IMG/VR virus record: IMGVR_UViG_3300006188_000005
Span: 1-40,415 of that record
Reading direction: 5' to 3' (one strand)
Length of the DNA: 40,415 nt
Source: a virus
Both the position numbers and the translations under genes were made by a program. This document shows, in pieces, positions 3,018 through 40,321 of this stretch (position 1 is the stretch's first letter; the number at the start of each line of letters is the position of its first letter). The notes beneath the pieces were generated by a model. It did no database searches. It was not told the DNA's origin and saw only the letters and a program-made list of their open reading frames with translations.

Positions 3018-4899
3018 CGCTGAGGTGCCTTTCGAGGGAGACGCGTTGCCAGATTTCCAGCGTCTTTTCGTCATCGCCGCCGCGGCGGGCGCTGATGGTG
3101 ACGCCCACGCTCTGCGCCTGGTAGGGGTCGGCCGGGTCCTGCACGTCCACCAGCAGCAGCGGCGCATACAGGCCCGACATGCCGGCGGTGACGGCGCCGG
3201 GCGCGTGCAGCGGAATCTGCAGATCCACCTGCCATTGCATGCCGCGGTCGGCCAGCACGTTGCGGCCGCGTTCGGTGGCCACGTCGGGCGTGACGATGAG
3301 CTGGTCGACCACCTGCTGCGCGAAGATGCTGGCCGCACTGCCCAGCCGCGATACCTTCGCCAGCACGCCCTGCTGGGTGCCGGCGATGATCACCGCGTCG
3401 TACATGGGCTTGCTCTGCTGCTGCACGGTTTCGTCGGTGCACCAGTCAATGGGCAGCGCCACGTCGGCGGCGGCCGGCGTCCACGCCCACGGGCTCACCG
3501 GGTAACGGCTCTGCACGATCAGCTTCGCGTCGCCCGGCGCGCTCTGCACCACGGCGCCACGCGCCGCGGCGATCTGCGAGATCACCGCCATGGGCGCCAG
3601 GTCCTGGTAGTACCAGTTGCCGCCGGGCACCACCCAATCCAGCCCGCGCCAGTCGATGGTGAACGGTGCGGCGCGGTCGGTGAGTTCCAGGGTGGCGAGC
3701 TGCTGTGCGCTGCGCGCGTCGCCCACCGCCAGCGAGCGCGCGGCGGTGTAGGTATCACTGAGCAGCGCCGTCTGGCTGCGGCCGGTCACCGTGACGCTGC
3801 GGTTGGCGTGCACACGCATGCCTTCGCGATCCTCGATGATCGCCGTCCACACGTAGCTGTTCATGGTGATCTCGACCAGCTTTGGCCCGTTGCCGTCCGG
3901 CTTCAGCAGGCTCCACTGGTCCGGGCTGGCCAGCTCCATGCGCAGCGACCAGCACCAGGCATCCACCGTGGCGGATAGGTCGACGGCGTTCACTTCGATC
4001 GGCGTGCGCTCGGGCAGCCGTACAACCTGCACTTCGTTCATGACGATGTAGACCCTGCGGGCAACGGGGATGGGGGGCGGCTCGTTGGGTGAGCCGGTCC
4101 AACCGGAATCGGTTGGAGGCGGATCGGGCTGGCGGCGTTGGCCATGAGGCCCCCAGGAGACCAGGTCACCTAGATCGATGTTTTTCGTTTGCCCCCAACG
4201 CACCATGATCCATCCGGGATCGGATCGCTTCACGACGATGGGCGGATAGGCATGCGCGCCTGTCAAGATCGCGCTTATGTGGAAGGCATCCGGTGACACA
4301 TACCCAGCAGTCAGCACTACGGAAATTGCAATGCCATCAGGCGGCGTATAGGCACTCGATTCTGGTCGCTGGTAGATCAAGGATGGCGGCAATGCTCGCT
4401 GCCATAGCTGGCCGTGCACCATGTCCGCTGCGAAAACCCGCAACCATGCGGCCCTCAACACCCGCGGGCGCGACGACGTTGCCATCACCAAGGGGGATAC
4501 ACGCCTGCGATCAACCGCATGGGTTGCCACGAAACGACCATAAATACTGCGGTGGCGTAGCCGCGCCAACGACCAATCGCCAGATGCAGACCCATCCGCA
4601 ACGCGGTTGCGCCGCCACGCGCCAGCCGTGGGGGTCAACGATGCCAACGTGCGCGACCATGCCGACGAATCGCGATGGTCGCGCGGAAGAGTCTGCTGCC
4701 AGCGCGTATCCATCGGCCGCAGGCTGCGCTGACGTCCTTGCCCGAACCGGGAAGCAATGCCGCGGCGCAACGTACCCTTGCCGCCCGTATCCGGAAGCTG
4801 TCCAAGCAACACGACCAGTGCCGTTCCATTTGGAGGAACGTATCCGGCGGACAGCACAACACCGATTGCGTTACCGGTCGGTGGCGTATAAATCGCCAT
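3007..4899 (-). CDS. Large distal tail / fibre-associated structural protein (630 aa)
   Basis: The ATG at 4899 lies 2 nt after the stop of the LamG gene. The N-terminus carries two copies of a YTPPxGxAIxVVLxAGYVxP motif. The C-terminal 400 aa has ordinary structural-protein composition. Function is inferred from position after the tape measure and large tail protein. Confidence 0.7.
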   Translation of the reverse strand: MAIYTPPTGNAIGVVLSAGYVPPNGTALVVLLGQLPDTGGKGTLRRGIASRFGQGRQRSLRPMDTRWQQTLPRDHRDSSAWSRTLASLTPTAGAWRRNRVADGSASGDWSLARLRHRSIYGRFVATHAVDRRRVSPLVMATSSRPRVLRAAWLRVFAADMVHGQLWQRALPPSLIYQRPESSAYTPPDGIAISVVLTAGYVSPDAFHISAILTGAHAYPPIVVKRSDPGWIMVRWGQTKNIDLGDLVSWGPHGQRRQPDPPPTDSGWTGSPNEPPPIPVARRVYIVMNEVQVVRLPERTPIEVNAVDLSATVDAWCWSLRMELASPDQWSLLKPDGNGPKLVEITMNSYVWTAIIEDREGMRVHANRSVTVTGRSQTALLSDTYTAARSLAVGDARSAQQLATLELTDRAAPFTIDWRGLDWVVPGGNWYYQDLAPMAVISQIAAARGAVVQSAPGDAKLIVQSRYPVSPWAWTPAAADVALPIDWCTDETVQQQSKPMYDAVIIAGTQQGVLAKVSRLGSAASIFAQQVVDQLIVTPDVATERGRNVLADRGMQWQVDLQIPLHAPGAVTAGMSGLYAPLLLVDVQDPADPYQAQSVGVTISARRGGDDEKTLEIWQRVSLERHLSDAH

Positions 4900-4900
4900 A

Positions 4901-5815
4901 CTACGAACTCGCCGAGGCAACGACAGGGCCGTGCGTAATGGGCTGGTAGCCGGTTGGCCCGAAGATCGTCACATCGTACTGGCCTGCAGGCACCCACATC
5001 TCGAAATCACCGCTTGTTGCAGGCGTGGCTTGCGCAGCATGTGCATGCGTGGACCAGTTGCGCGCAACCACCACAGATGCAGCACTGCCATTATCCAGTT
5101 TTGCATTTCCGGCAAGACGACGCAGATCAAGCGCAAGCGCGGCATGCAATGCGATACGCGTCGGATCGAGTGCTTTTGCGTAAAAGGCAGCCTCATCCAA
5201 TGCACCTTTTACCAGCTGCGACCAAGGCTGCCCCATGAAATACATCACATTGGCGTTATTCTGATTGCTTAACGCAGGAAGCGTCATGAACGCAACCTTT
5301 GAGCCCTCCACCCATGCTTCAAGAACAAGGCCGCGACGCACGAAACAAAAATGTCTGTATGTATTGTCGTTGTAGTGAACATCTGCTCCACCACCAAACT
5401 CCAACGCATAACTAACATCGGATCGCTCGCGGAAGGTGATTCTTCCATCCGTCAGCGCAACGCCTTGTTGAGAGTAATTTGCGAATACTGCCGGCCCATT
5501 ATAAGGGAATGCTGTATCAAACAAACCGAAAGGCAATACAATGTCATTGTTAGTCCATTTTGTTATGAATTCGATGGTGTAATCTGCCAAAACTTTGAAT
5601 GCAGGCGAAGCTGGCACCGTAATCTGACCACCAGCAAAATTTATTGCGGTACCTGTAGCGGCACTCTTGCCGGGCGCATTCATATTAAAGGAACCGTTTA
5701 TGCTCCCGGCATGACCGTTGCCTGTAGCGTCAGATACCGAAGTGCCGGCAGTTTCATTGCATTGGAAATACAACTCTGGCCCATCGGCAAGCACTTCCGT
5801 AGCGTACGTCGTCAT
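4901..5815 (-). CDS. LamG / concanavalin-A-like lectin-fold protein with C-terminal prealbumin-like beta domain; candidate receptor-binding or host-range protein
   Basis: 304 aa. It contains LYFQCNETAGTSVSDATGNGHAGSINGS...TIEFITKW...YRHFCFVRRG...LDEAAFYAKAL, typical of Laminin_G_3-type domains. The C-terminus FEMWVPAGQYDVTIFGPTGYQ is carboxypeptidase-regulatory-like. The region is visibly AT-richer than its neighbours. Confidence 0.75.
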   Translation of the reverse strand: MTTYATEVLADGPELYFQCNETAGTSVSDATGNGHAGSINGSFNMNAPGKSAATGTAINFAGGQITVPASPAFKVLADYTIEFITKWTNNDIVLPFGLFDTAFPYNGPAVFANYSQQGVALTDGRITFRERSDVSYALEFGGGADVHYNDNTYRHFCFVRRGLVLEAWVEGSKVAFMTLPALSNQNNANVMYFMGQPWSQLVKGALDEAAFYAKALDPTRIALHAALALDLRRLAGNAKLDNGSAASVVVARNWSTHAHAAQATPATSGDFEMWVPAGQYDVTIFGPTGYQPITHGPVVASASS

Positions 5816-8800
5816 TGCACGTCGCCCCGCATTTGCAAGCGGAAATTATCGTCAGTAAGCGTCTGCGCACCAGGCAGCACTGTGCGCGCTATCCAAAGCG
5901 GCGCGTTTGGCCCTATGGTGTTGAAGCGCAGAACATTGTTGACGCCCCAGCCAGCGCCCCAGCCGCCAGCCTTGAGCGTGAAATAAGGCTGCCCGGTGAG
6001 GGGGTTTATCGGCGCCGCGTCGGTACCGATGTTGAACGCACCGATCTGGCCGAGCGACTCACCGACGATGTTGCCCACGTTGGTGCTGGTGAAAATCAAC
6101 GCCCACCGCTCCGTCACCGCGTTCGCGTTGACGATCTGCAGCGGGTAGGTGGTGCGGTTGTACTGTGCGGTGGTGCCGCTGCCGCTGAGCGAGTCGCTCC
6201 ACACGCCCTGCCAGGTCTGCTGGCTGAAGAACACCGGATTCTGCGCCTGCAGGTCGCCGAACAGCAGCGCGCTGCTTACCTTGGCGCCTTGCGGGTAGTC
6301 GCGGCTGAGTGGCGCGCCGAGGGTGATGCCGCCGCTGAGTTCGACGCTGCTGGCCAGCAGCATATCCTCGACGGTGTAGTGGGCGCCGATGGGGGCGACC
6401 AGGCCGGCGGCGCTGTAGGTAGCGGTGGCGGTGATGAGGCCGGTATCCATGTCGACGGTGTACATGCCAATGGCGACGGCGGTGCCGGCGGCGTCGGACA
6501 GGGCGCACTGCGACAGCGGCGCGTCGGTGATGGTGAAGGTGTCGCCGGCCTTGAAGCCGGCGGGCAGGTTCACGGTGCGATCGTCATGGATCACCACCAC
6601 GTTGCCGTCGCGGAAGATCGGCACGCGGCCGGTGAGCGGCAGGCGCACGGGATCGATGCCGAGCAGGTTGGCATCCAGCGGCAGCGTGGTCTGCACCACG
6701 CAGTTGAAGCGGATGGTGCCGGGGTCGACCAGGATGGGTTTCCAGACGTTGCTGCCCACCACGTTGTTCGGGTCGTACCACGGCTGGGTTTCGTTGCCGG
6801 CGGCGACCACGTAGCTGCCGAACTTGACCTCGGCCCAGCCCATGTCGTTGTTGACCGTGCCGCCCACGAAGGCGCCGCTGATGACGCCACTGGCGTTGCT
6901 GGTGGCGCTGATGGACTCGCCGGTGTCGGCACGCACGGCCTGCACGAAGAACGAGGCCGGCCGCAGCGGCGCGCCGGGCGTGCGGAACACCACGTAACTG
7001 GTGGGCATGGTGCCGTACTGAGTCACCAGCGACTGCAGCGCCACGGGGCCGCCGGTGCTGGTGCCGTAATTGGTGAGGATGGCCTCGCCGGTGGCGTAGT
7101 TGATGGTGCCGGCTTGCGTGGCGCTGCCGCTGGCCGCGTCCATGTCGCGGAACAGCAGGCCGTTGCGGTCGATGTAGGTCTTGCCGCCCCAGGTGAACCA
7201 GACGGACCCGGGCAGGATGGCGTCCACCACGGTCTGGGTGAGCATGAAGCGCACGCCGGGGTAGTCGATGGCATCGATCTGCGGCGTTTCCGTGGCGCTG
7301 CTGCGCGTGGCGCTGAACTGCACCAGCGGCGAGGGCACGAAGTTGCCCAGCCCCTGGTTGAGCTGCCAGTTGCCGTAGGCGTAGGCGTTGCGCGCGCTGG
7401 TGATGTAGAAATTGCGCGAGGCCACCGACCCGGGCTGGATGGTGACGTGGCCGGTGGCGTAGTCCACCGTGCCGGCATTGACGCTGATGATGGGCAGGAA
7501 CAGGTCCGGCACCTGGCTGTTCGGGTACTGGAGGCTGCGCGTTTTGGGCGCGAGCTCGGTGGCGGTGACGATGTTGCCGGCGCCGTCGTCTTTCCAGTAC
7601 ATGGTGCTGGACTGCGTACCGAAGAAGCCGGCCACCTGCCCCGACAAGCCGCCGGGCTTGAGCGGCAGCGCCGCGGCCGGCAGGTCGAACGTGAGCGTGC
7701 CGCCGGCATAGGCGCCGATGACTGCCGAGCGCACGCCGTCCGCCTGCGTGTACGTGGCGGTGATCTTGGCGTTGCTGTCCGGGTAGGCCGCGGCGGCGGG
7801 CTGCAGGGCGATGGTGCCGTCGAGGTACACGGCCGTACCGGTGCCGTCGCCGCTGATGGTGCCGTTGGCCGCCACGCTGGCGTTCTTGGTGACGCCGCCC
7901 GACACCCATTGCAGGCTGAGCGAGCCGGGCTTGATCGGCCAGTGCGCGGTCTGGAACAGCACGCTGGGCGTGTTGACGGTGATGTCGCCGGCATGCTGCG
8001 CGAAGCTGGTGGGGTCGCCCCAGCTGTAGATCAGCTTGCTGCCCACGTCGGGCACGGCGCCCAGGGTGAGCGTGACGTCGCCGCTGGTGTAGTCCACCGT
8101 GCCGCCGCCGGCCGCGACGGAGTCACCGCGCACGGTACCGTCGCGCGCAGCATCGGTGAGGGTGTACCACTTGCCGAGGTAGCGGAACGAGACGATCAGC
8201 GAGCCGGGTGCGGGCCGCGTGGGCAAGGTCTGCACGTACACCGTGCCCTGCGACGCCAGGGTGATGTCCACCGCGATCGACTTGCTGGCCGCGCTGCAGG
8301 TGGCCGCGGGGATATAGGTGCCGCCGTTGATGGTCTGGCCGGAGAGCCGGCCGGACTCGTAATCGACCGTGCCGACGTTGGCGGTGTCGAGCACCATGTT
8401 GCCGGCGCCGTCGTCCTTGGCGGTGCCGCCGGGGATGGCGGCCTGCAGGCTGCCGGGGTACACGCCACGCAACTGGTAGCGCGGCGAAGCGCCGGTGGTG
8501 AGGGCCTTGGCGACCGCTGCGGCGATGTAGCTGAGCGACAGGCCCGGCGTGGCGCTGGCCACGGCCACCTCACGCGTGGTGCTGGGCACCAGCTGGGCAG
8601 TGATGCTGTCGATGGTGATGGACAGCGCCGCCTGCGCGGCCGGCGCGCTGAGCCGGCTCACGCCGAAATAGCTGCTGGCATCGGCCACGGTGACGGAGCG
8701 CACGCGCGTGGGCGGCGCCACGCCGGACAGGCGGCTTGCCTCGGCGCCCTGGTACATCTGCCGCAGCGCGCTGGTGAGGCTGAGCGTGAGCACCTTGCGG

Positions 8801-9354
8801 GTGTAGTCGCCCTGCGCGTCGGTGAAGGTGCGGGTCTCGGTTTTGACGTCGGCGATGCGCACGTACTGCTGCGCGGTGACGGTGGCGCCGGATTCCACGC
8901 TGAGCACCAGCACATCGCCCACTTCCGGCACCAGATCCTCCACGCGGCCCAGCAGGCTGATGGCCTTGGCGCCCTGCGGCTGGTTGCCGAACACGTAGTA
9001 GGACGACAGCGGGCCCACGGTGAGGTAGGACTCGATGCGATCCTGCGCGTTGCTGCGCACGTCACTGGGGCTGTTCGTGGTGAACATGGTCACCGCCACC
9101 TTGTCGTCACTGGGCGGGTCGGTGAGGATCACGTGCGCGCCGAGGTAGGTATCGGTGTTCTGGCTGCGCACGCTCATGTAGGCCTTGCGCAGCGCCAGGC
9201 GGCCGTAGGTGCGGTCGAGGCGGCTGATGTCGGGGAACAGGTTGTTGACCTGGCCGTCGACGATGACGTTGCCGGTCATCTTGCCGCCGCCGTCGGCGGT
9301 GTCGGTGAGGCGCTCGGAGGCGAGCAGCTGGATGTCGGTGACCTGGATCGTCAT
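5812..9354 (-). CDS. Large central tail / host-specificity-type structural protein (1180 aa)
   Basis: The long ORF sits directly downstream of the tape measure and a small tail protein. It has ATGA coupling at both ends and G/T/S/V-rich beta-type composition. Confidence 0.75.
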   Translation of the reverse strand: MTIQVTDIQLLASERLTDTADGGGKMTGNVIVDGQVNNLFPDISRLDRTYGRLALRKAYMSVRSQNTDTYLGAHVILTDPPSDDKVAVTMFTTNSPSDVRSNAQDRIESYLTVGPLSSYYVFGNQPQGAKAISLLGRVEDLVPEVGDVLVLSVESGATVTAQQYVRIADVKTETRTFTDAQGDYTRKVLTLSLTSALRQMYQGAEASRLSGVAPPTRVRSVTVADASSYFGVSRLSAPAAQAALSITIDSITAQLVPSTTREVAVASATPGLSLSYIAAAVAKALTTGASPRYQLRGVYPGSLQAAIPGGTAKDDGAGNMVLDTANVGTVDYESGRLSGQTINGGTYIPAATCSAASKSIAVDITLASQGTVYVQTLPTRPAPGSLIVSFRYLGKWYTLTDAARDGTVRGDSVAAGGGTVDYTSGDVTLTLGAVPDVGSKLIYSWGDPTSFAQHAGDITVNTPSVLFQTAHWPIKPGSLSLQWVSGGVTKNASVAANGTISGDGTGTAVYLDGTIALQPAAAAYPDSNAKITATYTQADGVRSAVIGAYAGGTLTFDLPAAALPLKPGGLSGQVAGFFGTQSSTMYWKDDGAGNIVTATELAPKTRSLQYPNSQVPDLFLPIISVNAGTVDYATGHVTIQPGSVASRNFYITSARNAYAYGNWQLNQGLGNFVPSPLVQFSATRSSATETPQIDAIDYPGVRFMLTQTVVDAILPGSVWFTWGGKTYIDRNGLLFRDMDAASGSATQAGTINYATGEAILTNYGTSTGGPVALQSLVTQYGTMPTSYVVFRTPGAPLRPASFFVQAVRADTGESISATSNASGVISGAFVGGTVNNDMGWAEVKFGSYVVAAGNETQPWYDPNNVVGSNVWKPILVDPGTIRFNCVVQTTLPLDANLLGIDPVRLPLTGRVPIFRDGNVVVIHDDRTVNLPAGFKAGDTFTITDAPLSQCALSDAAGTAVAIGMYTVDMDTGLITATATYSAAGLVAPIGAHYTVEDMLLASSVELSGGITLGAPLSRDYPQGAKVSSALLFGDLQAQNPVFFSQQTWQGVWSDSLSGSGTTAQYNRTTYPLQIVNANAVTERWALIFTSTNVGNIVGESLGQIGAFNIGTDAAPINPLTGQPYFTLKAGGWGAGWGVNNVLRFNTIGPNAPLWIARTVLPGAQTLTDDNFRLQMRGDVQ

Positions 9355-33492: not shown

Positions 33493-34023
33493 ATGCAACC
33501 CACCTTGAACATCCGCACCAAGACGCTGCACCTGCACCTGGCGCCCGGCAGCGAGTTGCCGCCCGCGGTGCTGGCCACGGCCGAGAGGATCGCGCCTGCA
33601 GTCGGCGCATCCGAACGGTTCAGCCTCACCATCAGGCACGGCGCCGAGCTCGTCACCGACCACAAGACTGGCCTGATGTGGCCCGTGTATGAAAGCGAGC
33701 AGTCGATGGACTACGACGCGCTGGAGAAGCATGTCACCGGGCTGCGCCTGGGCGGCTTCGCCGATTGGCGTACGCCCACCGTCGAAGAGCGCGAATCCAT
33801 CCGCGACCTGTCGCGCTACAACCCCGCGCTGTTCGAACCGCTCAAGTCCCGCAGCAACGGCTGGGAATGGACCTGCACGCCCTGCGCCTGGTCCAAGGAC
33901 GACGCGGGTGTGCCCGCTGCCTTCTGGCAGGTCTACGGCCTCTACGGCCACCTGGACGACGGCCACCGCGACGACAGGGCCTTCGCGCGGCCGTGTCGGT
34001 TCGTCGCGCGCGCCGGTCAGTGA
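33493..34023 (+). CDS. DGR target protein 1: DUF1566 / C-type-lectin-fold protein with C-terminal variable region
   Basis: 176 aa with HKTGLMWPV...GGFADWRTPTVEERESI...WEWTCTPCAW (DUF1566 hallmarks). The last 39 codons are VR1. GAGGA lies 6 nt before the ATG. No signal peptide is visible. Confidence 0.88.
   Translation: MQPTLNIRTKTLHLHLAPGSELPPAVLATAERIAPAVGASERFSLTIRHGAELVTDHKTGLMWPVYESEQSMDYDALEKHVTGLRLGGFADWRTPTVEERESIRDLSRYNPALFEPLKSRSNGWEWTCTPCAWSKDDAGVPAAFWQVYGLYGHLDDGHRDDRAFARPCRFVARAGQ
33901..34017 (+). repeat. DGR variable region VR1 (117 bp)
   Basis: It aligns gap-free with the TR (35048-35164). By manual alignment there are 12 differences, and every one is at a TR adenine (for example AAC to TAC/CTC/CAC/GAC). 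The flanking 33 bp and 39 bp are identical. Confidence 0.92.
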
Positions 34024-34064
34024 TCGGCCTTTTGTCACCCATCCCTTCCCACGGAGCGAATCCC

Positions 34065-34532
34065 ATGGACTTTGCCAAGCCCAACATCATCCGCATCAGC
34101 GATGCCGGCGACCACATGCCCATCGACCACGCCGGCAAGCATGCCGCGATCCTCTACCCCGACTTCGGCATCCAGTTTGCCGTGGGCGCCAAGGGGTTCG
34201 ACAAGGCAGCCAACTACGACAGCACCATCAAGCGCGCGGCCGACCTCACGCATGCCGGCGAATCCGGCTGGATCTTGGCGCCGGACCTGCGCCTGCAGCT
34301 GCTCACCATCGACTACTCGCGCCTCAATCCCGCCGCCGATCCGGCGCTATTCCCGGATGCGCTTTCGGCCTGGTACTGGACCTCGCACGGCTGCGCCTGG
34401 TCGATGGACGACGCGGGTGTGCCCGCTGCCTTCTGGCAGGTCCGCGGCCTCGACGGCAACCTGGACAGCGGCGACCGCAGCTACGAGGCCTTCGCGCGGC
34501 CGTGTCGGTTCGTCGCGCGCGCCGGTCAGTGA
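34065..34532 (+). CDS. DGR target protein 2: second DUF1566-like protein with C-terminal variable region
   Basis: 155 aa (MDFAKPNIIRISDAGDHMPIDHAGKHAAILYPDFG...GWILAPDLRLQLL...WYWTSHGCAW). The N-terminal part is different from target 1 but the C-terminal scaffold is the same. GGAG RBS upstream. No signal peptide. Confidence 0.88.
   Translation: MDFAKPNIIRISDAGDHMPIDHAGKHAAILYPDFGIQFAVGAKGFDKAANYDSTIKRAADLTHAGESGWILAPDLRLQLLTIDYSRLNPAADPALFPDALSAWYWTSHGCAWSMDDAGVPAAFWQVRGLDGNLDSGDRSYEAFARPCRFVARAGQ
34410..34526 (+). repeat. DGR variable region VR2 (117 bp)
   Basis: It aligns gap-free with the TR. There are 12 differences, all at TR adenines, and the substitutions differ from those in VR1 (for example codon 1 is CGC versus TAC). 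Confidence 0.92.
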
Positions 34533-34562
34533 TCGGCCCTTTGTCCCACTGAGCACCCCCTG

Positions 34563-34997
34563 ATGGCCTTCAACCTTCCACCCGTCGTCAAGCTCGCCGA
34601 GCGGCTCGCCTGCGACATCGAGGAAGCGGTGACGCGGTTCGCCCGCCGCCACCGCCACACCTTCGGTGCGCGGCTCCGCAATGCCGCGTTCGACGTTCTC
34701 CTCACGGCCGATGCCGCCGCGCGGCGCCCAGTGGAGCGCGCTCAGCTACTCACGCAGCTGCGCGATGCGGTGGACAGGTTGAAGGCCACCATGCAGGCGG
34801 GGCAGCGGCTTCGACAGTTCGCCAGCTTCGGCCAGTTCGAGGGCCTGATGGTCACGGCCCACGACCTCGGCAGACAGGTCGGTGCATGGCACCGGCAGTT
34901 TCACCCTCAAGGCCAGAATGCCGCGGCGCAAGCGCCCCGGCAGCGTGCCAAGACACTGAGTACCTACGCCGCCTCGATGCGTGAGGCCAATCCATGA
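34563..34997 (+). CDS. avd: DGR accessory variability determinant (Avd-like four-helix-bundle protein)
   Basis: 144 aa, basic and helical (…RFARRHRHTFGARLRNAAFDVLL…LRDAVDRLKATMQAGQRLRQF…). It is positioned between the target genes and TR/RT, as in canonical DGRs. Confidence 0.8.
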   Translation: MAFNLPPVVKLAERLACDIEEAVTRFARRHRHTFGARLRNAAFDVLLTADAAARRPVERAQLLTQLRDAVDRLKATMQAGQRLRQFASFGQFEGLMVTAHDLGRQVGAWHRQFHPQGQNAAAQAPRQRAKTLSTYAASMREANP

Positions 34998-36352
34998 CGA
35001 AGCCGCGCTACCCACAGGGATGTTCGGCCAGGTCGCAAGTGCGTGGGGACGCGGGTGTGCCCGCTGCCTTCTGGCAGGTCAACGGCAACAACGGCAACCT
35101 GAACAACGACAACCGCAACAACAAGGCCTTCGCGCGGCCGTGTCGGTTCGTCGCGCGCGCCGGTGAGTGTCAGGGTGAAAAGGTATCCGTGCGCGCGCTC
35201 TACGACGCCTGGCGCGCGGCACGGCGCAACAAGAAACCCAGTGAGAACCAGCTGGCGTTCGAACTGCACTGGATGGACCGCCTGCTGGAGACTCAGCAGC
35301 AATTGAACGCCGGCACGTGGCAGCCGAGACCCACCACATGCTTCGTCGCTCAGCGACCCAAGGCGCGCGAGATCCATGCGCCGGACTTCGCCGACCGCGT
35401 GGTGCACCACTGGCTGGTGCCCCAGCTCGACGCCATCTACGAGCCCACGTTCATCCACGACTCCTATTCCAACCGCCGCGGCAAGGGCACGCACAAGGCC
35501 GTGGCGCGGCTGCGCCAGTTCGTGCACCAGGTGCACAGCGGCCAGGGCAATGGCTGGTATCTGCAGCTCGACGTGGCGAACTTCTTTCCCAGCATCCACC
35601 GGCCAACGCTGTGGGCCATGCTCAAGCCGCGGCTCATCCGCGCCGGCCTGTCGCCCATCGCGCTGCGCACCACGCACACCCTGCTGCGCCAATCCGTGCA
35701 CGCGCAGGGCATCCTCTACCGCTGCACCCGCGAGGAACACGCCCGCGTGCCGCTCCACAAGCGGCTGGAGAACGCGCCCGCCGGCTGCGGCCTGCCCATC
35801 GGGAACCTCCCCAGCCAGTTCCTCGCCAACGTCTACCTCGACGTGCTCGACCAATTCGTCAAGCACGTGCTCAAGGCCAAGCGCTACCTGCGCTTCGTCG
35901 ATGACTTCGTGTTGGTGCACCACGACCGCGCCCAGCTGGAGCGCTGGCAACACCAGATCGAACAGTTCCTCGCCGACCGCCTGCGCCTCAAGCTGAAAGA
36001 CGACGTGCGCCTGCGGCCGCTGTCCGCCGGCATCGACTTCCTCGGCTACGTGGTGTTCCCCACCCATACCCGCGTGCGCAAGCGCGTGGTGCATCACGCC
36101 GAGGAACGCCTGCAGGCCTGGCATGCCGCCCACGCCGCGCGCGGCGGCTTCCGCGGCACGCCCGAGGATTTCCAGCAGCTTGACGCCACCTGGGCCAGCT
36201 ACCAGGGCCACTTTGCCCACGCCAACAGTTGGCGCCTGCAACAACGCTTCCTGCGCCGCCGCCCCTGGTTGGCGGCAATGACCCATTCGCGCCGCCGCTT
36301 CCATCACAGCCTCAGCGGCCGGCGCCTCACCGTGCGAGTAAACCATGTGTGA
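34994..36352 (+). CDS. DGR reverse transcriptase
   Basis: RT motifs are present: YLQLDVANFFPSI, GLPIGNLPSQFLANVYL (the DGR-typical I/LGxxxSQ), RYLRFVDDFVLV (YxDD-box variant) and IDFLGYVV. The frame is open from the ATG at 34994 (GAGG RBS, ATGA overlap with avd) and contains the TR. The conserved RT core begins after the TR, and an alternative GTG start is at 35189. Confidence 0.92.
   Translation: MTKPRYPQGCSARSQVRGDAGVPAAFWQVNGNNGNLNNDNRNNKAFARPCRFVARAGECQGEKVSVRALYDAWRAARRNKKPSENQLAFELHWMDRLLETQQQLNAGTWQPRPTTCFVAQRPKAREIHAPDFADRVVHHWLVPQLDAIYEPTFIHDSYSNRRGKGTHKAVARLRQFVHQVHSGQGNGWYLQLDVANFFPSIHRPTLWAMLKPRLIRAGLSPIALRTTHTLLRQSVHAQGILYRCTREEHARVPLHKRLENAPAGCGLPIGNLPSQFLANVYLDVLDQFVKHVLKAKRYLRFVDDFVLVHHDRAQLERWQHQIEQFLADRLRLKLKDDVRLRPLSAGIDFLGYVVFPTHTRVRKRVVHHAEERLQAWHAAHAARGGFRGTPEDFQQLDATWASYQGHFAHANSWRLQQRFLRRRPWLAAMTHSRRRFHHSLSGRRLTVRVNHV
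35048..35164 (+). repeat. DGR template repeat (TR), adenine-rich (nine AAC codons in the central 45 nt)
   Basis: GACGCGGGTGTGCCCGCTGCCTTCTGGCAGGTC-AACGGCAACAACGGCAACCTGAACAACGACAACCGCAACAACAAG-GCCTTCGCGCGGCCGTGTCGGTTCGTCGCGCGCGCCGGT. The flanks are identical to both VRs, and the centre has 21 adenines. Confidence 0.92.
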
Positions 36353-36650
36353 CCTCGAAACCACTCTTTCGCTTCTTGCCAGGCATGGCCGGCCACGGCT
36401 CAGCCAGATGGACGATGGCGGCTGGTATTGCTACGTCGACATGCACGTCGCCGCCAAGGGCGCTGCATTCAAGGTGGCCAGCGACTTCAACTGCCCGGGC
36501 GCGCTTTCTGCCGCTGATCAATGCCTCGATCGCATCCACGCGATGCTGAATAGCTTCGATGTCAACATGTCCGTGAATCACGACCGCGGCGTGATCGGCA
36601 TGCATGCCGCCAACCAAACCGGCATGGCGAAGGCTATTACCCATGGCTGA
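36345..36650 (+). CDS. Small protein (101 aa); its C-terminus is a diverged copy of the methyltransferase N-terminal segment
   Basis: MCDLETTLSLLARHGRPRLSQMDDGGWYCYVDMHVAAKG...SVNHDRGVIGMHAANQT. The last part parallels AVNHDHDALGMHAANHP of the next gene. It overlaps the RT stop and the MTase start. Confidence 0.55.
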   Translation: MCDLETTLSLLARHGRPRLSQMDDGGWYCYVDMHVAAKGAAFKVASDFNCPGALSAADQCLDRIHAMLNSFDVNMSVNHDRGVIGMHAANQTGMAKAITHG

Positions 36651-38565
36651 CGGCTCCCGCCAACACGGCTTCAACTTCGCCCACAAGCCGCTCGTCAGTG
36701 CCTTGCGCCCAGACGAAATCGTGGTGGATTTCTTCGCTGGTGGCGGCGGTGCCAGCGAGGCGCTACGCCAGGCACTTGGCCGCGACCCGGACGTGGCCGT
36801 GAACCACGACCACGACGCGCTCGGCATGCATGCCGCCAACCACCCCTTCACCCGGCACATGGAGGCCGACGTGTGGACGGTGGACATCTTGCGCGAGGTC
36901 GCAGGGCGACCGGTGGGCTGGTATCACGCCAGTCCGGACTGCACGCATTTCAGCCAGGCCAAGGGCGGCCAGCCGCGCGACCGCGCCACGCGCTCGCTCA
37001 GCTGGGTGGTGCCCAAGGTCGCCGGCACGCTCGCGCGCCGCGGGCTGGCCCCGCGCATCATCAGCCTGGAGAACGTCCGCCAGATTCTCGGCTGGTGCCC
37101 GTTGGTGGCGAAGCGCGACAAGGCCACCGGCCGCGTGGTCACGCTGGATATGGTGCCGCTGATCCACCCGGAAACCGGCCACGTGGTCAAGCGCGGCGGC
37201 AAGGTGTTGCTGATCAACCGCATCGCCGGCCCGGGCGAGCAGGTGCCGGTGCGCAACCAGTTCCTGGTGCCGGACAAGCGCCGCATGGGCGAGACGTGGC
37301 GCAAGTTCGTGGCCGTGCTGCGCGCGCTGGGCTACGTGGTGGAATGGCGCCTGCTGAAAGCCTGCGACTACGGCGCCGGCACCAGCCGCGAACGGCTGTT
37401 CCTGATTGCGCGCCGCGACGGCGAGCCCATCCGCTGGCCGGAGCCGACGCATGGCCCGGGCCTCGCGCAGCCCTACATCACCGCCGCCGACTGTATCGAC
37501 TGGAGCATCACCTGCCCGTCGATCTTCACCCGCAAAAAGCCGCTGGCCGACGCCACGCTGCGCCGGATCGCGAAGGGCGTGCAGCGCTACGTGATCGGCG
37601 CGGCCTCGCCGTTCATCGTGCAGTGCGCGAATGCTTCGGCGAACGGAGTGGCGAGCACTTCCGAGCCGCTGGGCACGGTGACGGGGTGGCCGAAGGGAGG
37701 CAGCCATGCGGTGGTGGCGCCGACGCTGGTGCAGACCGGGTACGGCGAACGCGCCGGCCAGTCGCCGCGCTCGCTGGATCTGCAGCAGCCACTCGGCACG
37801 GCCGTGGGCGGCGGCGTGAAGCACGCGCTGGCCGCCGCGCACCTGGTCAAGTTTCGCGGCGACAGCACCGGCGCCGCCGCCACCGACCCCATGCCTACCA
37901 TCACCAGCGGCGCAGGCGCGGCGCGTCCGGCTGGCGCGGCCCACGCCATGGGCATCCTCACCGCCTTCCTCGAACAAGCCCACGGCGGCGGCGAGCACGG
38001 CAACCCGGCCCGCGCGCGCGGCGCCGATGAGCCGGTGAGCACGATCAGCACCACCGGCAGCCAGCAGCGGATCGTGACGGCGCACCTTACGGCCTTCGGC
38101 CAGAACGCCAAGGGCACCGATCCACGCGAGCCGATGCAGACCGCACTGGGCGGCGCTGCGCGCTTCGGCGTCGTGGAATGCACCCTCAGCCCGGAGCACG
38201 AAGCCGGCGCGCTGCGTGTGGCTGCGCTGCTCGTCAACTACTACGGCAACGGACAGCCCCGCGACATGCGCGCGCCGCTCGATACCGTGACCACCCGCGA
38301 CCGCCTCGCGCTGGTTACCGTCACTCTGCATGGCACGCCCTATGTGATCGTCGACATCGGCCTGCGTATGCTCAAGCCGCGCGAGCTGTACCGCGCCCAG
38401 GGCTTCCCGGCCGACTACATCATCGACCGCACCGCCAGCGGCAAGCCACTCACCATCAGCGCCGCCGTGCGCATGGTCGGCAATAGCGTCAGCCCGCCGC
38501 CGCTCGCGGCCCTTGCCCGCGCCAACCTCGAACCGGCCCGCGAACCGGAACGGATCGCCGCATGA
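36643..38565 (+). CDS. Orphan DNA (cytosine-5) methyltransferase (640 aa)
   Basis: Motif I is VDFFAGGGGAS. The motif IV region is ASPDCTHFSQAKG. ENV is in ISLENV. Motif VIII region is GAGTSRERLFLIARR. Motifs IX-X are RMLKPRELYRAQGFPADY...MVGNSVSPP. A long G/A-rich segment separates the two halves. No restriction endonuclease gene is nearby. Confidence 0.88.
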   Translation: MADGSRQHGFNFAHKPLVSALRPDEIVVDFFAGGGGASEALRQALGRDPDVAVNHDHDALGMHAANHPFTRHMEADVWTVDILREVAGRPVGWYHASPDCTHFSQAKGGQPRDRATRSLSWVVPKVAGTLARRGLAPRIISLENVRQILGWCPLVAKRDKATGRVVTLDMVPLIHPETGHVVKRGGKVLLINRIAGPGEQVPVRNQFLVPDKRRMGETWRKFVAVLRALGYVVEWRLLKACDYGAGTSRERLFLIARRDGEPIRWPEPTHGPGLAQPYITAADCIDWSITCPSIFTRKKPLADATLRRIAKGVQRYVIGAASPFIVQCANASANGVASTSEPLGTVTGWPKGGSHAVVAPTLVQTGYGERAGQSPRSLDLQQPLGTAVGGGVKHALAAAHLVKFRGDSTGAAATDPMPTITSGAGAARPAGAAHAMGILTAFLEQAHGGGEHGNPARARGADEPVSTISTTGSQQRIVTAHLTAFGQNAKGTDPREPMQTALGGAARFGVVECTLSPEHEAGALRVAALLVNYYGNGQPRDMRAPLDTVTTRDRLALVTVTLHGTPYVIVDIGLRMLKPRELYRAQGFPADYIIDRTASGKPLTISAAVRMVGNSVSPPPLAALARANLEPAREPERIAA

Positions 38566-38888: not shown

Positions 38889-39178
38889 AGGCAAGCCGAG
38901 AACTGCAAAACCTTCGCCGCCGCGTCGATCGCGCGCGCGACTTCCCCATGAATACCTGCCCAGCCAGCCGCCATGTGCATCTTATGGCGCTGGCCTTGGC
39001 CGAGGGCGAGGATTACCCGATGCTGCGGGAAGAACCGCAACACTGCGCTGCATCGTTGCTCAGCGTGCTGGAATCGCTGTGGAAGGCTCGCACTGCCCTT
39101 ACCACATCCCCTCGGCTAGGTTCGTCCCGCGGAGGTTCGCATAGCGCCTCAGCGAAGCCAGATTCTTGTGCCCGGTGA
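38885..39178 (+). CDS. Possible small ORF (97 aa, GTG start) convergent with and overlapping the int 3-prime end
   Basis: GTGA overlap with the xis stop. (V)KASRELQNLRRRVDRARDFPMNTCPASRHVHLMALALAEGEDYPMLREEP... looks protein-like up to about 39100 and then runs antisense to int. Support is weak. Confidence 0.3.
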   Translation: MKASRELQNLRRRVDRARDFPMNTCPASRHVHLMALALAEGEDYPMLREEPQHCAASLLSVLESLWKARTALTTSPRLGSSRGGSHSASAKPDSCAR

Positions 39179-40220
39179 TCTTCGCAATCTGCATGTCCGT
39201 GAGCCGCGTGCGCTCATAGATGCGCGCCGTGGCTTCGTGCCGCAGGTCATGGAAGTGCAGCCCGTTGCACTCGGCCGCCTCGAAGATCCGCGCGAACTGC
39301 CGCGATAGCTGAGCCGTGCAGCGCCGCAACTCGGCGCGTGTCCGCTCGCCACTCCACCACGGGAACACCTGCTCGTCAGGCGCACGGTCGTGCAGGTAGA
39401 CCTTGAGCAGCTTGCGCAACACCGTGGTGATCGGCACCTGCCGCTTGTCGCCATTCTTGGTCTTGTCGAGGAAGATCGTTCGCCGCTCCAGGTCGATCTG
39501 GGCGACGGTGAGCGTGTACATCTCGCTCATACGCATGGCCGATTCCAGCGCCATGTCGAACAGCAACACCAACGCCGGCCCGTGCCGAAGCTCCAGTGCC
39601 CGCTGCCGCCCTTCCGCCTTGGCGCCGGCCAGCACCGCACGGATCGCCGGTTCCTCGGCCGCCTCCAGTCGGCGATCGCGCTCGTCGTCGCCCTTCGCCT
39701 CGCCCTCCACCAGCGCCACCTGCGTCACGTCGTCCGGCGTGTACGTCGAATACCCCTTGCGCAGCAGCCGCAGCGGGTTCATCGGTATGTCGCCCTTCGC
39801 GGCCAACCAGTCCAGCGCGCGGGCCAGCGCTCCGACGTAGTGGCGGATTGTGCTCGGCGCCAGGTTCTGCTCGCGCTTCATCGCCGTCACCCACGCCTGA
39901 GCCCAAGTGAACGTGAGGCCCGGCAGCGCCAACTTGCGCGGCAGCCTCAGCTCCACCACGTCGAGCAACGCCGTGTCGTCGGCGGAAATGTGCTGCGCGC
40001 TCTTGTATCGCGTCAGCGCATCGCTCAACAGGTTCGTCGCCGAGGGTTTCGTGCCGAACTCTTCCGGCACCACTCCGCGCGCCAGCAGCGCCTCCAGCCG
40101 GCGCACGTATTCGTCGCCCTCGGCCTCATCGTCAAAACTCACATAGACCGGCTTGGGCAACACCCCTGCGCGCCGTATCGTGTAGTGCCAGGTAGACCCG
40201 CGCCGCCGCTTCGTCGCCAT
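39099..40220 (-). CDS. int: Tyrosine recombinase / phage integrase
   Basis: 373 aa from MATKRRRGSTWHYTIRR. Catalytic signatures are present (…AMRMSEMYTL…, HFHDLRHEATARI, GHKNLASLRRYANL). It is adjacent to the attR/tRNA copy. Confidence 0.93.
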   Translation of the reverse strand: MATKRRRGSTWHYTIRRAGVLPKPVYVSFDDEAEGDEYVRRLEALLARGVVPEEFGTKPSATNLLSDALTRYKSAQHISADDTALLDVVELRLPRKLALPGLTFTWAQAWVTAMKREQNLAPSTIRHYVGALARALDWLAAKGDIPMNPLRLLRKGYSTYTPDDVTQVALVEGEAKGDDERDRRLEAAEEPAIRAVLAGAKAEGRQRALELRHGPALVLLFDMALESAMRMSEMYTLTVAQIDLERRTIFLDKTKNGDKRQVPITTVLRKLLKVYLHDRAPDEQVFPWWSGERTRAELRRCTAQLSRQFARIFEAAECNGLHFHDLRHEATARIYERTRLTDMQIAKITGHKNLASLRRYANLRGTNLAEGMW

Positions 40221-40227
40221 CCGTGAA

Positions 40228-40288
40228 AACTCGCGTAATCGGAAACGACGCAAGCTTACGCGAGTTTGCCACTCAAAAACGAGTGGCA
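40228..40288 (-). promoter_or_regulatory. Two adjacent stem-loops immediately upstream of the int start codon
   Basis: AACTCGCGTAA (40228-40238) pairs with TTACGCGAGTT (40256-40266), an 11-bp stem. TGCCACTC (40267-40274) pairs with GAGTGGCA (40281-40288). On the int strand the 11-bp stem ends in GAGTTTTCACGG directly before the ATG. Confidence 0.5.
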
Positions 40289-40321
40289 AACCCTCGATTT
40301 CTCCCCTTTTCCACCGAATCT

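Follow-up and report, generated by a model that had tools for sequence, protein, structure and literature searches.

The diversity-generating retroelement (DGR) of Bordetella phage BPP-1 is arranged as mtd-avd-TR-brt, with the template repeat (TR) between the accessory gene avd and the reverse transcriptase (RT) gene, and its target is a single tail-fiber protein of ~380 aa encoded among the tail genes. In the survey of Wu et al. 2018 (PMC5758913), the avd-TR-RT order (Architecture B) accounts for 68% of DGRs and two-target cassettes for 13%. DUF1566-type targets make up 14%, about half of them short DUF1566-only proteins, and a Stenotrophomonas DGR with tandem targets is mentioned as well. 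Overlap of a TR with an annotated RT open reading frame (ORF) is already a named class, group 3 of DiGReF (PMC3521204). Among viruses, DGR targets are mostly tail proteins (Roux et al. 2021, PMC8144416), and the genome announcement of Burkholderia phage Magia had pointed out a potential DGR whose targets are short (PMC7883833). Here, we describe a DGR in a viral stretch of 40,415 nt (IMG/VR record IMGVR_UViG_3300006188_000005, positions 1 to 40,415), the whole of which we call the window. We hold with high confidence that it is a complete avd-TR-RT DGR in the early region of a Rhodanobacter temperate prophage, where it diversifies two DUF1566/Lcl_C genes. The element is real and complete but ordinary for a DGR, and it does not overturn current understanding: DUF1566-only short targets, two-target cassettes, the avd-TR-RT order, and TR/RT ORF overlap have all been described before (PMC5758913, PMC3521204).

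The likeness to BPP-1 extends to the order of target, avd, TR, and RT, to the adenine-specific differences between the TR and the variable repeats (VRs), and to the position of the VR at the C-terminal end of the target. In both systems, a GC-rich 3' constant segment is followed by a VR-specific junction and a hairpin, and the BPP-1 RT (bRT) is the closest solved homologue of the RT in the window. Unlike BPP-1, the locus has two tandem targets of 155-176 aa in place of the one tail-fiber protein, and its cassette is early and integrase-proximal rather than among tail genes. Only a 30-nt spacer precedes the conserved RT sequence, the RT ORF contains the TR, and FVDD stands in place of YMDD in the catalytic box. 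The original prediction, made from the sequence of the window, had proposed the order target 1, target 2, Avd, TR, and RT ending at 36352; the ORFs were found where it had placed them, and all are intact. The components of the cassette are as follows.

33493-34023, plus strand: target 1 (T1), 176 aa, DUF1566/Lcl_C; Pfam Lcl_C E=4.5e-14 over residues 53-169, above the gathering score
33901-34017, plus strand: VR1; variable core 33934-33978; differs from the TR at 12 positions, each a TR adenine
34012-34028, plus strand: hairpin at the VR1 end, GCCGGTC-AGT-GATCGGC, a candidate element on the initiation of mutagenic homing (IMH) side; spans the target 1 stop codon
34065-34532, plus strand: target 2 (T2), 155 aa, DUF1566/Lcl_C-like; Pfam Lcl_C E=1.5e-6; included in the T1 family alignment
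34410-34526, plus strand: VR2; variable core 34443-34487; differs from the TR at 12 positions, each a TR adenine
34521-34537, plus strand: hairpin at the VR2 end, same sequence as that of VR1
34563-34997, plus strand: avd, 144 aa, accessory four-helix-bundle protein; PHROG 3206 'Avd protein of DGR', 1e-12
34994-36352, plus strand: RT ORF, 452 aa as called; conserved RT domain from 35195
34994-35047, plus strand: leader between the avd stop and the TR; invariant ATGACGA and a covarying hairpin
35048-35164, plus strand: TR; A-rich core 35081-35125
35165-35194, plus strand: TR-specific 3' junction and spacer, GAGTGTCAGGGTGA..., IMH*-like; in frame with the RT

To find how the repeats differ, we compared TR, VR1, and VR2 base by base. 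They align without gaps over 117 nt and are the same in all three copies over the 5' 33 nt and the 3' 39 nt, as originally predicted in both coordinates and counts. All of the mismatches lie in the 45-nt core, and 24 of 24 fall at TR adenines, which agrees with the earlier claim of 12 substitutions per VR confined to the 21 adenines of the core (the TR has 23 adenines in its 117 nt). The probability of 12 of 12 mismatches hitting adenines by chance is 1.8e-10 per VR and 3e-20 for both VRs. The realignment that had been proposed as a check for substitutions at other bases returned 0 non-adenine mismatches in the window's own pairs. It had also been claimed that both VRs were independently diversified. 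VR1 and VR2 do differ from each other, at 12 sites, and they have four identical substitutions in common. No further copies of either constant segment beyond TR, VR1, and VR2 are present in the window. The core adenines belong to nine AAC codons, one GAC, and one AAG, and they occupy codon positions 1 and 2 only. This leaves 11 randomizable codons per target, equivalent to 4^21 DNA variants and ~2e12 peptides, and a stop codon is reachable by adenine mutagenesis only from the AAG codon. Each VR sits at the 3' end of its target gene and ends 6 nt before the stop.

The same organization recurs well beyond the window. A scan of one genome per species gave 18 related loci with RTs 49-75% identical to that of the window. 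Seventeen of them are in Xanthomonadales/Lysobacterales, with host genera that include Frateuria, Dyella, Rhodanobacter, Lysobacter, Luteimonas, Xanthomonas, and Stenotrophomonas; the other (L018) is in a more distant uncultured gammaproteobacterium metagenome-assembled genome (MAG). Each of the 18 encodes Avd and one to three small targets of the Lcl_C type, with the TR ~30 nt before the conserved RT sequence, and in all 18, the TR/VR mismatches are adenine-only or nearly so. Flanking DUF2303, phrog_204, and methyltransferase genes are common to several of these relatives. The number and placement of targets vary: L002 has three in tandem (4273-5338), five loci (L003, L006, L008, L016, and L017) have remote targets 3-5 kb upstream of the cassette, and L013 has a third VR downstream of the RT (8367-8471). 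Four additional loci (L026-L029) came from a metagenome scan with the 40-nt 3' constant segment. A metagenome scan with a pattern holding a 45-N run gave no match, nor did a scan of viral contigs with the 33-nt 5' constant segment.

These four loci, the soil-metagenome contigs L026, L028, and L029 plus L027, are close relatives of the window, and they bear on the direction of transfer. Their protein-coding genes are 82-90% identical to those of the window, with the exception of T1 of L028 (72%), and the 3' constant parts of their TRs and VRs are 100% identical to the window's. The TR core is likewise 100% identical in L026, L027, and L029, while the VR cores of L026 and L029 are 71-78% identical to those of the window, having been re-randomized at adenine-derived sites. 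Where the TR carries non-adenine changes, at positions 15 (G>T) and 23 (C>T), these recur in the cognate VRs of the same contig. Since non-adenine TR changes are mirrored in the VRs, and since the TR core is invariant where the VRs are re-randomized (L026, L028, L029), the comparison of relatives shows one-way TR-to-VR transfer, from a conserved donor that has been repeatedly copied into the VRs with adenine mutagenesis.

The proteins encoded beside the TR are consistent with this picture. In addition to its PHROG match, Avd matches Pfam bAvd (3e-5) and NCBIfam DivGenRetAVD (6e-8), although its database record reads 'four helix bundle protein' only. It is the accessory protein that adjoins TR and RT in a DGR. 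The RT matches RVT_1 (1e-15) and phrog_1423 (4e-98), and the closest solved structure is Bordetella phage BPP-1 bRT (8ub7, E=9e-37), followed by a group II intron RT (8e-13). The DGR-typical IGNLPSQ motif that had been noticed originally is present at 35798-35818, and the catalytic box, FVDD, is at 35894-35905. The [I/V/L]GxxxSQ motif and the intact xxDD box would place the RT in the DGR clade. FVDD is found in the window, in five other assemblies of the same prophage (L021-L025), and in L026 and L029, whereas the 22 other RTs with a readable motif (L001-L019, L027, Magia, and Burkholderia phage vB_E192a) have YVDD.

The ends of the repeats differ between template and target. Past the 117-nt repeat, both VRs run on as CAGTGATCGGCC (Gln, then stop) and the TR as GAGTGTCAGGG. 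The first base after the repeat is G in the TR versus C in the VRs, and the junction and both continuations are conserved in 19 of 19 loci. The VR-end hairpin has 7 bp at both VRs, and the TR is unable to form it. The asymmetry agrees with IMH/IMH* of BPP-1, as summarized in PMC5758913, and the locus has both the IMH/IMH* asymmetry and the VR-specific downstream hairpin of a DGR. The hairpin is only semi-conserved among relatives, with no compensatory changes across them, and single-strand folding energies near the VR and TR ends were no better than those of shuffles. One target homologue, P0014 (184 aa), does not finish at the usual ...ARAGQ but reads on into CQGGADAE, similar to GECQGE, the spacer peptide downstream of the TR. 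P0014 may have lost its stop, or its VR end may have been fused to TR-type downstream sequence.

On the other side of the TR, the leader contains a hairpin in which 35002-35012 pairs with 35018-35028. Across 18 loci, 94% of cells are paired, and compensatory changes occur in four of seven pairs, a level that 0 of 500 shuffles reached and that collapsed in slid controls. Invariants at the nucleotide level are ATGACGA, GCTACC, GGATG, TCGCAAGTG, and GGGGA. L026 and L029 share the whole 50-nt leader with the window at 100% identity and L027 at 94%, although the genes are just 82-90% identical. These observations fit a functional RNA element 5' of the TR, a role suggested by analogy with BPP-1, in which the 3' end of avd is part of the core DGR RNA. 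An Rfam search of the window gave no match.

The leader and TR also bear on where the RT begins. Rather than lying in an intergenic gap, the TR is in frame inside the called RT ORF, and gene callers choose ATG 34994 as the RT start, in an ATGA shared with the avd stop. In each of the 17 Xanthomonadales relatives, no stop codon interrupts the RT frame across the TR, and the frame is that of the AAC codons. The invariant ATGACGA keeps to the RT frame at 15 of the 18 loci, its distance taking ten values that are each a multiple of 3, and the spacer between the TR end and the RT sequence has six lengths, 24-42 nt, again all multiples of 3. From the 5' edge of the TR to the conserved N-terminal RT motif, two loci (L013 and L026) lack any in-frame ATG, GTG, or TTG. 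The only downstream start candidate in the window, GTG 35189, lies two residues before the conserved motif, where bRT has 16. Third-position variability is modestly raised in the leader and spacer (0.75 and 0.89 bits, respectively; 1.04 bits for the RT control). From these sequence patterns, the RT likely starts at the TR or upstream of it. DiGReF structural group 3, as cited here from Schillinger et al. 2012 (PMC3521204), is a classification of annotations only; in contrast, the reading frame, the overlap with avd at ATGA, and spacer lengths in multiples of 3 are conserved here across 15-17 loci. We also considered whether the Asn-rich peptide encoded by the TR is important as part of the RT. 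This idea is weakened by the Burkholderia phages, which read the TR in another frame, and by L004, L005, and L007, in which the conserved ATG is out of frame.

The preferred account of the locus, as a complete DGR, would work as follows. A transcript spanning the avd 3' end, the structured leader, the TR, and the short spacer would be reverse-transcribed by the RT with Avd. Template adenines would be miscopied, and the cDNA would replace the last ~117 nt of the two tandem DUF1566/Lcl_C genes. The direction would be set by the junction, with CAGTGATCGGCC and the hairpin at the VRs versus GAGTGTCAGGG at the TR. Of this account, the sequences themselves show the anatomy of the element, its adenine specificity, the direction from TR to VR, and repeated re-randomization in the lineage, while the biochemical steps of retrohoming are borrowed by analogy from the Bordetella BPP-1 model.

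What the diversified proteins do is a separate question. T1 and T2 are predicted to be small lectin-like proteins with diversified tips, in which the VR is embedded in the DUF1566/Lcl_C domain as judged from sequence. GenBank ODV27867.1 (T1) is named 'DUF1566 domain-containing protein' only. PDB sequence and profile searches with the target came back empty. AlphaFold (AF2) models of the target built from 13 and 28 sequences had predicted local distance difference test (pLDDT) values of 47 and 57, those in the VR region being under 50, and Foldseek of these low-confidence models against PDB gave no match better than E=0.8. The lectin fold is assigned solely because of the Lcl_C/DUF1566 match and the published class (PMC5758913). 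In category 'd' or CLec2 DGRs, for which the Legionella LdtA DGR is the prototype, the VR overlaps the DUF1566 motif as it does here (PMC5758913). Unlike LdtA, a surface lipoprotein on an integrative and conjugative element (PMC5758913), the targets here are prophage-borne and lack a lipobox, Sec, or Tat signal; neither T1 nor T2 has a signal peptide, twin-arginine motif, or apolar N-terminal run in its sequence.

Nor do the targets resemble tail proteins. Neither T1 nor T2 matched a tail PHROG, and the DGR occupies the early, integrase-proximal region, with ~20 kb between it and the tail genes; its targets are not tail proteins. Mtd-type tropism switching would involve a tail-fiber target in the tail module, and none was found. 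As viral DGR targets are mostly tail proteins, early-region targets that lack export signals are somewhat atypical for a phage. However, the early-region arrangement with small targets is already present in Magia and relatives. In Magia, as in several of the relatives, the surroundings of the cassette are syntenic with those in the window. The cultured temperate Burkholderia phages Magia and vB_E192a (MT701587, PQ789819) have two small tandem targets, Avd, TR, and RT in an early region near the integrase, with adenine-only mismatches (8-13 per VR) and the TR within an RT-frame ORF. They differ in their Burkholderia hosts, Magia being reported as a myophage (PMC7883833), and in the reading frame of the TR, which is Thr-rich there versus Asn-rich here. 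Nucleotide similarity to the RT is limited to a ~175-nt stretch at 78-80%. Because the targets lack export signals and lie in the early, integrase-proximal region, they could act in the lysogen or infected cell as a diversified binder pair rather than in receptor binding by the virion. We offer this tentatively, as possible but on balance unlikely; if true, such a pair may serve, for example, in superinfection exclusion, anti-defense, or phage-phage conflict. Equally tentative is the separate proposal that the RT is translated through its own template. If it is translated from the ATG overlapping the avd stop, ribosome traffic would compete with use of the TR RNA for cDNA.

Two other explanations of the repeats and the RT depart further from a DGR. 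Reverse transcription might play no part at all if the repeats arose by ordinary paralogous duplication and then drifted apart through point mutation or gene conversion, and the four identical VR1/VR2 substitutions, with their identical flanks, are what gene conversion would give. However, the adenine-only pattern (P=3e-20) recurs independently in 18 relatives, and the A-rich copy always stands beside the RT and is invariant between relatives. The pattern, its recurrence, and the invariant TR effectively refute duplication, to which we assign almost no probability. The RT could also belong to some other class, such as a retron, group II intron, abortive infection (Abi), or defense-associated (DRT) RT, near which the repeats would be incidental. 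Weak sub-threshold NCBIfam matches to group II, Drt3a, Abi, and retron models point in that direction, but their scores are far under the cutoffs (97 versus 300 bits, 46 versus 200). With the BPP-1 DGR RT as the best solved relative (9e-37 versus 8e-13 for the group II RT) and an [I/L]GxxxSQ motif accompanied by an Avd gene and a TR alongside, another RT class is exceedingly improbable.

A more serious question is whether the DGR still operates. Several observations weigh against our reading of the element as a whole. Both further matches of Avd, to bAvd and DivGenRetAVD, are under curated cutoffs, the Lcl_C score of T2 falls below the gathering score, and the low-confidence models gave the C-type-lectin fold of the targets no structural support. 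The catalytic box has a Y-to-F change in YxDD. Over 3427 nt of cassette, only 0-2 nt separate the window from each of the five other assemblies of this prophage that could be compared as DNA, and no within-population hypervariation of the VRs was seen in these consensus assemblies. T1 is identical on 43 contigs and T2 on 42. One difference is at an adenine-derived site (L021, 34452 G>A). In L023, 34497 and 34511 are both C>T, within 15 nt of each other in the constant 3' part of VR2; the TR does not have these changes, and retrohoming has therefore not erased them. A DGR that was once active but has since fallen silent or become strongly attenuated, with VR alleles frozen as past retrohoming products, would be consistent with the almost invariant VRs, with the two VR2 changes left in place in L023, and with the Y-to-F change. 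Yet all ORFs are intact, and the window has zero non-adenine TR/VR mismatches. L026 and L029 share the F variant but carry different VR sets, so diversification went on after the Y-to-F change; the change apparently did not stop the element, and the idea that it left the RT dead is weakened. Consensus assemblies hide minor alleles, and many of the assemblies may sample one clonal population. Furthermore, the differences between T1 and two rare variants of it, P0002 and P0003, are limited to variable codons. We consider a silenced element rather improbable. Consequently, the earlier claim of active mutagenic retrohoming is supported for the history of the locus, by adenine specificity and by TR-to-VR transfer in relatives, but not as an ongoing process, given the nearly fixed VRs of L021-L025.

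The protein variants known for this prophage are few and either change a single site or have a swapped VR. The two T1 variants, both from the Joint Genome Institute (JGI), are also of note in themselves. Each has the T1 backbone; the VR peptide of P0002 is that of VR2, and the VR peptide of P0003 is one adenine-site residue off that of VR2. They may be VR1/VR2 recombinants, products of the same cDNA at both sites, or assembly chimeras.

As a complete DGR, the locus contributes a clean and fully intact member to a compact family of DGRs that occurs widely in the prophage-like regions of Xanthomonadales. More than twenty comparable loci are available, including near-isogenic relatives that display TR-to-VR transfer directly. 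The family could serve as a model for the role of short, signal-less DUF1566 targets for a temperate phage, for where a DGR RT starts when the TR is inside its ORF, and for the RNA elements needed around the TR.

The surrounding window, with 67% GC, is a siphovirus-like temperate prophage of Rhodanobacter, and its proteins have an exact match in the Rhodanobacter sp. 68-29 MAG. The minus strand encodes an Rz-like spanin, a phrog_6128 protein, the tape measure, the major tail protein, a protease-capsid fusion, the portal, the terminase, and a primase/helicase. On the plus strand are early genes (phrog_204, DUF2303), the DGR, a 653-aa C5 cytosine methyltransferase, and a helix-turn-helix (HTH) protein. 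No tRNA is present in the window. Features outside the cassette are as follows.

39099-40289, minus strand: integrase, following the plus-strand early genes
5812-9354, minus strand: 1180-aa protein directly after the tape-measure region, with an end-to-end match to phrog_6128, of unknown function
36565-36616 and 36791-36842: two copies of a 52-nt direct repeat, 87% identical

The phrog_6128 protein is probably a distal tail or host-specificity protein, and no VR copy is present in it or in the tail region. Through the 52-nt repeat, the small ORF at 36345-36650 has sequence in common, at its 3' end, with the N-terminal part of the C5 methyltransferase (...VNHD..GMHAAN...), which suggests a partial duplication of the 5' region of the methylase gene.

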